4,701 nt of DNA from a virus (lineage: Duplodnaviria > Heunggongvirae > Uroviricota > Caudoviricetes). The notes below the pieces were generated by a model. The model was not told the DNA's origin and made no database searches. It saw nothing but the letters and a program-made list of their open reading frames with translations. Below are positions 1-4,537 of the stretch, in pieces. Within the stretch, counting starts at the first letter, position 1. Each line of letters begins with the position of its first letter. The position numbers and the translations under genes were made by a program. The stretch lies in IMG/VR virus record IMGVR_UViG_2713896783_000005. One strand, written 5' to 3'.

Positions 1-207
1 CAGGCTCTGTTACCGGCGATCGAAAAGGCAATGCCGCCTCTGCTGGTGGCCCGTATGCGCAGTCACAGCTCTGAATATTACCGTGAGATCGTCGAACGGA
101 GGGATCGGCTGGTGAAAGATGTGGATGATTTTGTCGCAGCGGCGATCGCCTGGGGCACCCTGACTAACAGTGGGGGTCAGCCTGGTAATGCTGTTGTCGT
201 GCATTGA
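1..207 (+). CDS. 3' end of upstream gene (5'-truncated by window edge); hypothetical protein, possibly a cII-like or other early regulatory protein
   Basis: Frame 1 is open from base 1 to TGA at 205-207 (...EYYREIVERRDRLVKDVDDFVAAAIAWGTLTNSGGQPGNAVVVH); E. coli-like codons (ctg, ccg, gcg); same strand as the rest of the operon. Function not recognisable from this fragment. Confidence 0.45.
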   Translation, partial: QALLPAIEKAMPPLLVARMRSHSSEYYREIVERRDRLVKDVDDFVAAAIAWGTLTNSGGQPGNAVVVH

Positions 208-275
208 CCAACAATATTCATGCCGGATTTCTTCCGGATGTTCGAGGGTAAAGTTCGGTATCAGATGAGGTGAGT

Positions 276-420
276 ATGGCTAATGCCTGGCTCAGATTGT
301 GGCATGACATGCCAAATGATCCCAAATGGCGAACCATTGCCAGGGTCTCAGGACAGCCAATCGCAACAGTGATGGCGGTGTATATCCACCTTCTGGTGAG
401 TGCGTCACGAAATGTCACGA
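276..420 (+). CDS. 5' fragment of an O-like replication initiator gene (first copy), cut off by the N gap
   Basis: ATG at 276 with the same RBS context as the full gene at 543; encodes MANAWLRLWHDMPNDPKWRTIARVSGQPIATVMAVYIHLLVSASRNVT, identical in protein to the start of the 543-1586 CDS; runs into N at 421. Confidence 0.4.
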
Positions 421-470
421 NNNNNNNNNNNNNNNNNNNNNNNNNNNNNNNNNNNNNNNNNNNNNNNNNN
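421..470. other. Assembly/scaffold gap (50 N)
   Basis: Run of exactly 50 n characters, flanked by near-identical sequence (204-420 vs 471-687). Confidence 0.95.
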
Positions 471-542
471 TTGACCAACAATATTCATGCCGGATTTCTT
501 CCGGATGTTCGAGGGTAAAGTTCGGTATCAGAAGAGGTGAGT

Positions 543-1586
543 ATGGCTAATGCCTGGCTCAGATTGTGGCATGACATGCCAAATGACCCCAAGTGGCGAA
601 CGATTGCCAGGGTATCAGGACAGCCAATCGCAACAGTGATGGCAGTGTATATCCATCTTCTGGTGAGCGCGTCACGAAATGTCACGACATGTCACGGCGT
701 GTCACTACGTGGTCACATTGATGTCACGACGGAAGATTTAGCAAGTGCGCTTGATGTGACGGAAGACGTAATTGATTCAATTTTGCATGCAATGCAGGGG
801 CGGGTTCTGGATGGTGACCTTATTTCCGGATGGGAAAAACGTCAGGTGCTGAAAGAGGACAATGGTAACGTTTCGCAAACGGCAAAATCCCCGGCAGAGC
901 GCAAGAGAGCGCAGCGGGAGCGGGAAAAGCTGCGGAAACATAATGCTGATTGTCACGATGAGTCACGACGTGTCACGCATCTGTCACGACAAGTCACGAC
1001 AGATAAAGATACAGATAAAGATACAGATACAGAATTAAACCCCACACATAACGCGCGCGAGAGTATTCCGACCAGTGAGTCGAATGGTGCGCCGTTGCAG
1101 ACAGCCGAACCTGAATACCTGGACGGCCTGAGCGAACCGATCGGGAAATTTTCGATGACTACTGTCTGGCAGCCGTCGCCGGATTTTCGACAACGGGCAG
1201 CAGTGTGGGGTATGGCTCTGCCTGAGCCGGAATTTACACCTGCTGAGCTTGCCGCATTCCGGGATTACTGGATGGCGGAGGGGAAGGTTTTCACGCAGGT
1301 TCAGTGGGAGCAGAAATTTGCCCGCCACGTGCAGCACGTCAGGGCACAGGTAAAACCAGTCAGCAAGGGGGGAAGCCATGCAGCATCAGGTGGCACGGCA
1401 TCACGGGCAGTTCAGGAAATCCGGGCTGCACGCGAACAGTGGGAACGTGACAACGGATTTATCAGCAACGGAAACGGCCTGGAAGCTGTGGGAGCTCATG
1501 GGGGAGGTGTATTCGAACCGCTGGACTCAGAAGAACGGGGCCGCACCTTCGAAGCTCTGGATTGCCCAGATTGGTGCGATGACTGA
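543..1586 (+). CDS. Phage replication initiation protein (lambda O analogue) with N-terminal HTH-like domain and C-terminal DnaT-like ssDNA-binding domain
   Basis: ATG at 543 preceded by AAGAGG (532-537); the track's GTG at 537 lacks an RBS. The segment IGKFSMTTVWQPSPDFRQRAAVWGMALPEPEFTPAELAAFRDYWMAEGKVFTQVQWEQKFARHVQ closely matches my recollection of the E. coli DnaT C-terminal domain ([64 protein letters not shown]). Iteron arrays lie inside the gene as in lambda O. Stop TGA 1584-1586. Confidence 0.85.
   Translation: MANAWLRLWHDMPNDPKWRTIARVSGQPIATVMAVYIHLLVSASRNVTTCHGVSLRGHIDVTTEDLASALDVTEDVIDSILHAMQGRVLDGDLISGWEKRQVLKEDNGNVSQTAKSPAERKRAQREREKLRKHNADCHDESRRVTHLSRQVTTDKDTDKDTDTELNPTHNARESIPTSESNGAPLQTAEPEYLDGLSEPIGKFSMTTVWQPSPDFRQRAAVWGMALPEPEFTPAELAAFRDYWMAEGKVFTQVQWEQKFARHVQHVRAQVKPVSKGGSHAASGGTASRAVQEIRAAREQWERDNGFISNGNGLEAVGAHGGGVFEPLDSEERGRTFEALDCPDWCDD
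671..732 (+). repeat. Iteron array 1: six GTCAC(G) repeats at 10-11 bp spacing (putative initiator binding sites, origin)
   Basis: GTCAC begins at 671, 681, 691, 701, 712 and 723, about one helical turn apart. The first two repeats are also present in the upstream duplicate at 404-418. Confidence 0.6.
952..1000 (+). repeat. Iteron array 2: five GTCACG repeats at 10-11 bp spacing
   Basis: GTCACG begins at 952, 962, 972, 983 and 993; same motif and phasing as array 1. Confidence 0.6.
1001..1032 (+). repeat. A-rich tandem repeat (GATAAAGATACA x2 plus GATACA) directly after iteron array 2; possible DNA-unwinding element, encodes a DKDTDKDTDTE linker
   Basis: 12-bp unit at 1002-1013 and 1014-1025, partial unit at 1026-1031; its position next to the iterons mirrors the AT-rich region of the lambda origin. 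Confidence 0.5.
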
Positions 1587-2790: not shown

Positions 2791-3104
2791 GTGGGTGGAA
2801 GACGTGGTGCCGGGCGGAAATCATGATACTCCGGCAGTGTGCGGGAACGATGAAGGTAAAAAGCGTTGGCGCACTTATCGGACGAACTGAAGCGGCAGTG
2901 AGAACGAAGGCACGGGAGCTGGGCATCAGCATGATGTTACGTGGTGATTTTCACCCGTCGGCAAAATATTCTCAGCGTGATATTGAGCTGGCGCGGCAAC
3001 TGCATCAGAGAGGCATGCAAAGAAGGGAAATTGCCAGAAAATTAGGCATGCCGCTGCGCATAGTGAATAACTACGTTTATTTCGACAGGAGGGTGTCTGC
3101 GTGA
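2787..3104 (+). CDS. Small DNA-binding protein with two tandem GcrA-N-terminal-like HTH modules; start uncertain (GTG 2787, or ATG 2823/2850)
   Basis: Two repeats of the pattern W/Y-x-x-x-E/D-I-x-x-L...G-x-x-x-x-E-I-A/V...LG ([11 protein letters not shown]...[17 protein letters not shown] and [27 protein letters not shown]), resembling the GcrA N-terminal domain as I recall it. GTG 2787 overlaps the upstream TGA (2788-2790) as GTGA. The track's 2700 start would overlap the upstream gene by 90 nt and is rejected. Confidence 0.55.
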
Positions 3105-3632: not shown

Positions 3633-3731
3633 AGGCGATAAACCAACTAACAACTAAATACTGAAGATTTAAATCAGAAACGATTTTTATTAAATCCTTA
3701 ACCGGAGGGATTCCTGCACCCTCAGAACATC

Positions 3732-3979: not shown

Positions 3980-4537
3980 ATGAGCACTATTACCAGAGAA
4001 CGCGCGGAGATTAAATCATACATCACAGGCTTCCTGAGCGACTCGGCGCACGATAACAAGTCTTCAGACAGCCTGCTGGCTAATGTGTTTCGTATCGCGC
4101 TGGCATCACTGGAAGCAGAGCCGATAGCAATGGTAGTGCCTGATGAAATGGATTTGCTTACCTGCCATCTCGACGGTGTAACTAAAACATATGCTGATGG
4201 CTGGAACGCCTGCCGCGTCGCCATGCTTCAGGCCGGAAACTTTCGGGAAAATAAGAATTCGTCAACCAACAATTTTCGGGAAATCTCGGAAACGTCAACC
4301 AGATCTCCGATAACTCTGGATGGCTGGATAAGCTGTACTGAGCGAATGCCTGAAAAGAGCCAGAACGTGCTTATTTCGATGAATATCGATAGCGAGGCTG
4401 GGCCATTAATATATTCCGCACGCTATCTCGGAGGCACGTTCCGGCGCGGAGGTATAGCAGTTAGTCCGGGTAATGATCTTAGGCAAGCAACCCACTGGAT
4501 GTCGCTACCAGAACCGCCGCAGGAGGTGAATCAATGA
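3980..4537 (+). CDS. Prophage protein with DUF551-like C-terminal domain
   Basis: ATG 3980 one nt after the upstream stop, with AAGGA (3967-3971) upstream; C-terminal segment DGWISCTERMPEKSQNVLISM...ATHWMSLPEPP matches my recollection of the DUF551 signature (W...LP...HWMPLPEPP). Stop TGA 4535-4537. Confidence 0.7.
   Translation: MSTITRERAEIKSYITGFLSDSAHDNKSSDSLLANVFRIALASLEAEPIAMVVPDEMDLLTCHLDGVTKTYADGWNACRVAMLQAGNFRENKNSSTNNFREISETSTRSPITLDGWISCTERMPEKSQNVLISMNIDSEAGPLIYSARYLGGTFRRGGIAVSPGNDLRQATHWMSLPEPPQEVNQ
4237..4302 (+). repeat. In-frame imperfect 33-bp tandem duplication inside the DUF551-like gene (encodes NFRENKNSSTN / NFREISETSTR)
   Basis: TTTCGGGAAA at 4241-4250 and 4274-4283, and CGTCAACCA at 4260-4268 and 4293-4301, both 33 bp apart; located at the junction between the N-terminal region and the DUF551-like domain. 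Confidence 0.55.

Follow-up and report, generated by a model that had tools for sequence, protein, structure and literature searches.

Iterons are 17–22 base pairs (bp) long in most plasmids, and the RepA_N plasmid initiators carry iterons inside their own gene. The replisome organisers of Gram-positive phages offer a similar arrangement, namely G38P of SPP1, with oriL inside gene 38, and those of the lactococcal rep genes of Tuc2009 and TP901-1. In the origin of phage λ (oriλ), iterons and an AT-rich tract lie in the middle of gene O, and the O protein also binds AT-rich single strands; the 19-bp iterons, four in λ and six in Stx phages, are each an imperfect inverted repeat (PMC7466680). Here we analysed a 4,701-nucleotide stretch of a Caudoviricetes record (IMGVR_UViG_2713896783_000005), hereafter the window, in which a gene encoding a 347-residue initiator (543–1586, + strand) contains two arrays of short GTCAC(G) repeats and an A-rich tract. 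Comparison with relatives makes it likely that a Rac-like lambdoid prophage has its replication origin at window positions 671–1040, inside its initiator gene. A preliminary description of the same DNA had proposed such an embedded origin, and position conservation, synonymous sites, covariation with the initiator and the AT-rich tract all support that proposal. The element is best read as an iteron origin with an unwinding element, which would work like oriλ but is not homologous to it.

The resemblance to oriλ concerns layout. Both arrays and the tract are inside the initiator open reading frame (ORF), a likeness of position only; the repeats are direct, the AT-rich tract stands on one side of them, and the DNA doubles as the code for an inter-domain linker. 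As in the lambdoid O/P module of λ and of the Stx phages 933W and P27, a λ-P-type loader is adjacent and the gene order is repressor, cro, (cII-like/YdaT), initiator, loader. The iteron number varies between relatives, as it does among λ and Stx phages, with three to six units in the prophage group of the window. In contrast, the initiator is not homologous to λ O, a DnaT domain being the only one found in it; the units are 10–11 bp long with a non-palindromic core of 5–6 bp, and a second array lies about 225 bp upstream, within the sequence coding for the DNA-binding domain. The lambda ori arrangement named in the preliminary description is therefore borne out for iterons followed by an AT-rich tract within an initiator gene, but not for the initiator itself, and its distinction between units of about 10 bp and of 19 bp was accurate. 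No DNA similarity was found between the window module and characterised lambdoid phages or their ori sequences, alignment to the latter being a check that the preliminary description had suggested.

By predicted fold, the initiator appears closest to the DnaD-like Gram-positive replisome organisers and the RepA_N plasmid initiators. It shares with the former a DnaD-like N-terminal domain (predicted) and the placement of repeats and an AT-rich stretch within the initiator gene. It differs from them in having no PF09681 match, a DnaT-like C-terminal domain, a λ-P-like and not a G39P-like loader, proteobacterial hosts, and a shorter repeat unit with one motif in both arrays. Sequence membership in RepA_N (RepA of pSK41 and pTZ2162; PDB 4pta and 4pql) was not detected; the plasmid iterons are longer, and the plasmid C-terminal domain is host-specific and unrelated to DnaT. 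The general features of iteron-type origins are present, with at least three phased direct repeats, an adjoining easily melted tract, and location in cis with the initiator gene. Full-text paper searches, with subscription literature outside their coverage, found no published description of this origin; a paper on the Stx replication region makes no mention of DnaT-type initiators or repeats, and oriJ of Rac is only named in the papers searched.

Repeat arrays and A-rich tract of the initiator gene

Inspection of the gene disclosed eleven same-strand GTCAC cores in two arrays. Array 1 (671–727, + strand) consists of six GTCAC at 671, 681, 691, 701, 712 and 723, with spacings of 10, 10, 10, 11 and 11 bp, and array 2, the putative core iteron array (952–997, + strand), of five GTCACG at 952, 962, 972, 983 and 993, with spacings of 10, 10, 11 and 10 bp. 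The preliminary description had counted eleven GTCACG; the full hexamer is present in nine of the eleven copies, those at 701 (GTCACT) and 712 (GTCACA) being the exceptions, and the 10–11 bp spacing it reported was confirmed in both arrays. In 200 shuffles that preserved dinucleotide composition, GTCAC averaged 8.4 ± 2.6 and GTCACG 2.1 ± 1.5 copies; the whole window contains 23 and 13, respectively, and none of the shuffled sequences had as many of either. Tandem Repeats Finder placed period-10 arrays at 671–716 and 952–1000, and 2.9 copies of ACAGATAAAGAT at 999–1033. The units are on average 10.4 bp (array 1) or 10.25 bp (array 2) apart, and the helical-phase resultant within each array is 0.96–0.99 at a period of 10.4–10.5 bp, so the units within each array share one helical face. 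The earlier statement that all sites lie on one face holds array by array and does not extend to the two arrays together, whose relative phase varies with the assumed helical repeat.

Array 1 encodes residues 43–62, the hairpin that joins helices 1 and 2 in the winged helix, and array 2 encodes linker residues 137–152. The peptides quoted in the preliminary description were correct, and its placement of the repeats in the linker is right for array 2 and the tract but not for array 1, which encodes part of the folded N-terminal domain (N-domain). The hexamer is read in turn as SR, VT and CH/GH, using all three frames; a unit of 10–11 bp does not divide into whole codons and is read in every frame, so a repeated peptide is not its cause. 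Compared with phage Evi and most relatives, the window has two additional in-frame units (21 bp) in array 1.

The tract (999–1040, + strand) begins directly after array 2, as described earlier, and is a candidate DNA unwinding element. It is A-rich and purine-rich, consisting of 2.9 copies of ACAGATAAAGAT and then ACAGAATTAAAC, and encodes TDKDTDKDTDTEL. Its GC fraction is 0.325, and positions 1001–1040 form the least stable 40-mer in the coding regions of the window (dG −42.4; mean −56.0, standard deviation 4.1), with a weaker duplex found only at intergenic positions 3655–3694. Among 67 loci of the family, the GC content at third codon positions (GC3) of the 36 nucleotides after array 2 is 0.23, versus 0.66 in the rest of the gene (Wilcoxon p ~1e-12), and the minimum-GC window of the gene is the tract in 58. 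The low GC3 persists even in genomes of 65–70% GC, and the purine richness of the coding strand is seen throughout the initiator family. By these values, the tract is kept AT-rich against codon bias.

A tblastn search with residues 1–166 revealed the N-domain in phages of Escherichia, Aeromonas, Pseudomonas (65% identity), Ralstonia and Microcystis, as well as in uncultured phages. Lack of conservation in homologous initiator genes, together with an ori mapped elsewhere, had been named beforehand as evidence against the proposed origin. Instead, the layout is conserved throughout the family, and of some 150 loci in viral contigs and in Gamma-, Beta- and Alphaproteobacteria most have the repeats at fixed positions within the gene (about +110–165 and +320–460). 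In phages Evi, 204576, pAEv1818, phi1 and PACT201, the array-1 position is occupied by four GTCAC, with one inverted GTGAC some 33 bp beyond them, and the array-2 position by three to five GTCAC, with a GATAAAGATA-type tract directly behind. In Ralstonia phage Hennie, with an N-domain of 38% identity, four GCAACG at about +130 and five G[AC]AACG at about +390 precede a purine-rich tract.

For a systematic count, a discovery scan by N-domain alignment, with one genome per species, gave 79 loci from the same three proteobacterial classes, in which chains of at least three identical 5-mers at 9–12 bp spacing were recorded in 100-bp bins within ±1.2 kb of the ATG. Chains occur at +100..200 in 43 of 78 loci, at +300..400 in 55 of 76 and at +400..500 in 40 of 76, and every remaining bin holds 0–4 chains. 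The core varies by lineage (GTCACG, CGAACG, GTAACG/GAAACG, GCAACG or GTGACG, all sharing ..ACG), and arrays 1 and 2 use an identical core in 44 of the 47 loci with at least three copies in both zones. Across 20 GTCAC-class loci (mean nucleotide identity 70%), third codon positions within the cores are 97% conserved (n = 6), whereas third positions elsewhere are 58% conserved (n = 94); the cores are thus under selection as DNA. The number of units in array 2 ranges from three to six among near-identical E. coli prophages (L010–L089), and their A[CA]AGAT hexamer tract spans 18–54 nucleotides; array 1 has six units in all copies but one.

Two inverted copies of the core accompany the arrays of the window. 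One GTGAC (756–760, − strand) lies about 33 bp after array 1 at conserved 'DVT' codons, and a second (814–818, − strand), between the arrays, is particular to this window. GTCAC-class loci mostly carry an inverted GTGAC at the position equivalent to 756, and at the corresponding 'DVA' codons of phage Hennie stands CGTTGC, which inverts that phage's GCAACG motif. Covariation of the inverted copy with the motif was considered as a general feature and set aside; it is true of the GTCAC class and Hennie and inconsistent in the CGAAC class, which amounts to partial support.

Initiator domains and covariation with the iteron core

The gene is annotated by PGAP, in an identical O157 genome, as a 'DnaT-like ssDNA-binding domain-containing protein' (ssDNA, single-stranded DNA), and its product matches the PHROG family phrog_1408, 'replication initiation protein', with E 3e-119. 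Weak PHROG matches are 'DnaD-like helicase loader' (6e-9) and 'replisome organizer' (5.8e-6), and NCBI labels some family members 'phage replisome organizer'. Residues 1–104 (543–854, + strand) are predicted to form a DnaD-like winged-helix domain. An AlphaFold2 model of residues 1–125, built with 42 homologues, has a predicted local distance difference test score (pLDDT) of 77.6, with helices at 29–45, 63–70 and 74–84 and a wing at 85–94; the predicted structure has the winged-helix fold of the DnaD N-terminal type, and the hairpin encoded by array 1 is its lower-confidence part. A Foldseek search with this model returned no significant match, the fold search giving a generic winged helix, and Pfam returned no match for four diverse N-domains even at E ≤ 10, PF09681 included.

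Within the full-length initiator, Phage_rep_O was not matched and the sole Pfam domain is PF17948 (DnaT; residues 203–269, E 3e-17). It falls in a DnaT-like C-terminal ssDNA-binding domain (residues 196–270; 1128–1352, + strand) that also matches the PDB DnaT structures 6aep, 4ou6 and 9zbt (E ~1e-20). Like E. coli DnaT (primosomal protein I), the initiator thus has, in 75 C-terminal residues, a match to the ssDNA-binding domain (E 1e-20); its N-terminal half is unrelated to DnaT. Its score against the DnaT equivalog model NF002770 was 94.5, below the cut-off of 201, with the match restricted to residues 196–271. Some homologues (P0041, P0044, P0051, P0058 and others) have the N-domain fused directly to an HNH nuclease (PF01844, PF14279), without the basic helix described below, which fits a modular DNA-binding domain; no arrays were found at L161, the locus of an HNH-fused homologue.

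The winged helix is followed by a basic helix, AERKRAQREREK (residues 118–129; 894–929, + strand), which is a candidate sequence-reading element. Mutual information between alignment columns and iteron class peaks at K121 and Q124, both outside the winged helix and inside this helix (AERKRAQRERE). The residues at 121 and 124 pair with the core in a regular pattern: the GTCAC class has K and Q at these positions, the CGAAC class A/G and W, the G[TA]AAC class V and Y/F/H, the GTGAC class T and Y/W, and the GCAAC class S and H/R. A rule based on residue 121, found in the discovery set, where it fits 53 of 61 loci, also holds for 59 of 65 loci in an independent set drawn from viral contigs with an alignment led by a distant member (40–63% identity); the predicted word is likewise present in loci overlooked by the first array detector. 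In leave-one-out prediction, residue 121 gave the right class in 46 of 60 cases, whereas prediction from the relative closest in the winged-helix core was right in 30 of 60. Close relatives can differ in class, as do L105 (K, GTCAC) and L114 (V, GTAAC) at 81% core identity, and L145 (K, GTCAC) and L149 (A, CGAAC) at 69%. Two loci, L126 and L143 (Serratia and Pantoea), do not fit the rule; there, at +325..+690, a YVYYVATTDGDVVRVGISRNPWAR... segment with (A)CTACG / CGTAG repeats takes the place of the basic helix and of the arrays normally found.

The hairpin encoded by array 1 was also considered as the specificity determinant, an arrangement in which the site would encode its own reader. This was rejected because the class follows the basic helix in loci without array 1; L145, L149, L128, L166 and most of the viral test set lack that array, yet have class-specific repeats in array 2. 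We tentatively suggest, as a possibility rather than an expectation, that the initiator may read its short iterons mainly through one basic helix, R-x-[KR]-x-x-R-E-R, in which a single position (K, A/G, V, T or S) sets the core. If true, this would be a simple, evolvable recognition code, with origin and initiator re-specifying together. Since array 1 lies in the coding sequence of the DNA-binding domain, a switch of specificity would also alter the sequence of the protein hairpin.

Proposed origin function and competing explanations

We infer initiator binding, unwinding, helicase loading and origin activity itself, in the following scheme. The N-terminal part of the initiator, comprising the DnaD-like winged helix and the basic helix, would bind the GTCAC(G) units. 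Their recurrence every 10–11 bp would align the bound proteins on one face of the DNA, giving a cooperative, DNA-bending nucleoprotein complex, as formed by λ O at oriλ. Array 2 would serve as the core array, abutting the purine-rich AT tract, which would act as the unwinding element and melt most easily in the gene. The C-terminal DnaT-like domain could then hold the opened strand, recruit the complex of the λ-P-like loader and host DnaB, or both. Array 1, about 225 bp upstream, would provide accessory sites, probably raising local occupancy, looping to array 2 or exerting feedback control.

Covariation with the initiator would suit any role that needs initiator binding, and iterons commonly serve initiation and control alike. 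The repeats could accordingly be initiator sites for control only (autorepression, a transcriptional roadblock or handcuffing), with the true origin elsewhere in the prophage, and it speaks for this that array 1 is distant from the AT tract and dispensable in many relatives. Control would, however, have no need of the AT-rich tract, the least stable in the gene, that always follows array 2 directly and is kept against codon bias. The ±1.2-kb flanks of the 79 loci hold no other repeat-plus-AT element, and in oriλ, the analogue that has been characterised, it is the repeats inside the gene that form the origin (PMC7466680). We therefore regard a purely regulatory role as unlikely. It is more improbable still that another host or phage protein binds the repeats, even with a fold search that yields a generic winged helix for the initiator. 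The core switches between lineages in step with an initiator residue, in hosts from three proteobacterial classes, whereas binding by a conserved host factor should keep the site constant; DnaA boxes (up to two mismatches) are not enriched (18 against 13 ± 3.6 expected), and none lies in 560–1180.

The repeats are almost always on the coding strand, inside the ORF, which would suit a role at the mRNA level, as a structure or protein-binding site on the initiator transcript in translational control. The spacing of 10–11 nucleotides is instead that of the DNA helical repeat, the adjoining AT-rich tract is a DNA-melting feature, and Rfam has no match anywhere in the window. Inverted copies also stand beside array 1, and array 1 is itself inverted relative to array 2 in L129 and L153, orientations that fit duplex DNA binding and not a strand-specific RNA site; the chance that the repeats act in RNA seems to us equally slight. 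Least probable of all, and strongly disfavoured, is that these are neutral, slippage-prone tandem repeats or the functionless by-product of a repetitive peptide. Copy number does vary among near-identical prophages, and assemblies do break at the repeats. Against this stand a unit that is not a multiple of three and is read in all three frames, nearly invariant synonymous sites in the cores, positions fixed across about 150 diverged loci, and the core shared by arrays 225–280 bp apart in nearly all loci that carry both.

Beyond the coding-strand bias, several points weigh against the reading of the repeats and tract as an origin with its own initiator as reader. The conserved core of merely 5–6 bp is short for iterons, array 1 is missing in many family members, and a few homologues have no arrays at all, for example in Microcystis phage Mwe-JY25. 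The absence of array 1 from many relatives makes it look accessory. The purine-rich tract doubles as the code for an acidic/lysine linker, whose composition alone would favour GAx and AAx codons, though this leaves the third-position A/T of the tract unexplained. The covariation counts are uncorrected for phylogeny, and, with fewer than 60 bp between the helix codons and array 2, recombination that moves both together could add to the association; array 1, beyond the conserved winged-helix coding sequence, still follows the same class as residue 121. The papers searched held no data on binding, unwinding or origin activity for this system.

Prophage context, helicase loader and significance

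Judged by sequence identity, the window is the replication module of a Rac-like lambdoid prophage of E. coli O157:H7. Positions 471–2100 are 100% identical to many complete O157:H7 genomes; 2536 of 5426 complete E. coli genomes match part of this interval, and most of it is present in 658. In strain 319, the prophage gene order is LexA-family repressor, Cro, YdaT, DnaT-like ssDNA-binding domain-containing protein, replication protein P, DUF1627 and more early genes. A plasmid search with the module returned prophage-bearing or phage-like records only.

The helicase loader gene (1378–2040, + strand) encodes a λ-P-like protein matching PF06992 (Phage_lambda_P, E 1.3e-15) and phrog_109, 'P-like helicase loader' (E 1.5e-62). 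PGAP places its start at 1579, and the ORF runs 201 nucleotides further upstream to an ATG at 1378 that is preceded by AAGGGGGGAAG. This long form overlaps the last 209 nucleotides of the initiator gene in another frame; the phrog_109 profile covers its residues 18–220, and it is also open in phage Rac-SA53 (L169, 1879–2544). One further PHROG family, phrog_15931 (482 positions), spans initiator and loader together.

Megablast comparisons suggest a mosaic. An N-terminal module (479–1034) is common to phages Evi, Tritos and vB_EcoS-640R1, and a C-terminal module with the P gene (1003–2100) is common to Rac-SA53 (ydaU, ydaV) and PPompW/Stx2a phages, so that the joint is the A-rich tract (1003–1034). 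Identity to Rac-SA53 ydaU and ydaV is 87% over the C-terminal half of the initiator and the P gene. The YdaU of that phage has another N-domain and no GTCAC arrays, with a short GATACAGATACAGAT tract kept at the joint; the arrays thus travel with the N-domain as a specificity cassette.

The window itself carries a truncated second copy of the initiator gene start (204–420, + strand), 96% identical (8 mismatches) to 471–687. This copy is a scaffold artefact outside the origin, and it ends after two GTCACG units (404 and 414) at a run of 50 N (421–470). Compared with one complete genome, window 1–420 is 98.1% and window 471–900 is 100% identical, both aligning to the same place; the window is therefore two overlapping contigs, from sibling prophage copies, that were scaffolded. 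The contig break falls inside array 1.

Database homologues of the N-domain are mostly partial proteins of 150–190 residues that end at about array 2 and the tract, and in several Pseudomonas phage records the initiator gene is annotated as two hypothetical proteins or left unannotated; the repeats seem to defeat both assembly and gene calling. Compared with phage Evi, the initiator gene in the record of phage 204576 lacks 1 bp (L003, ~1815) and is frameshifted, and the PACT201 record (L006, 1460–2060) has several frame breaks in its initiator copy; these represent either pseudogenes or sequencing errors.

Elsewhere in the module, a promoter and terminator scan of 471–2100 found nothing above shuffled expectation, and its lone promoter-like match reuses GTGAC of array 2. 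In strain 319, IS1203 interrupts a small DNA-binding protein gene 3' of DUF1627 (L001, 8628–9841), a gene that is intact in the window (2832–3104). The DUF551 gene contains a 31-nucleotide direct repeat (window 4238–4301), AACTTTCGGGAAAATAAGAATTCGTCAACCA and AATTTTCGGGAAATCTCGGAAACGTCAACCA, whose copies are 74% identical, lie 33 nucleotides apart and encode NFRENKNSSTN and NFREISETSTR, respectively.

The replication module is common in E. coli and has relatives across the Gamma-, Beta- and Alphaproteobacteria, in a large initiator family without prior characterisation whose N-domain has no Pfam family. The likely location of the origin shows where replication of these prophages would start after induction, which bears on the amplification of neighbouring genes in O157 and on the building of mini-replicons. 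The repeats also account for the often-broken annotations of the initiator gene and for draft assemblies split inside it. With at least five iteron classes, each tied to one initiator residue, the family is a tractable system for studying joint change of initiator and origin specificity, and the series of classes may yield orthogonal replication parts. If the single-helix code is true, the family would represent a natural set of orthogonal origin–initiator pairs in temperate phages of Proteobacteria.

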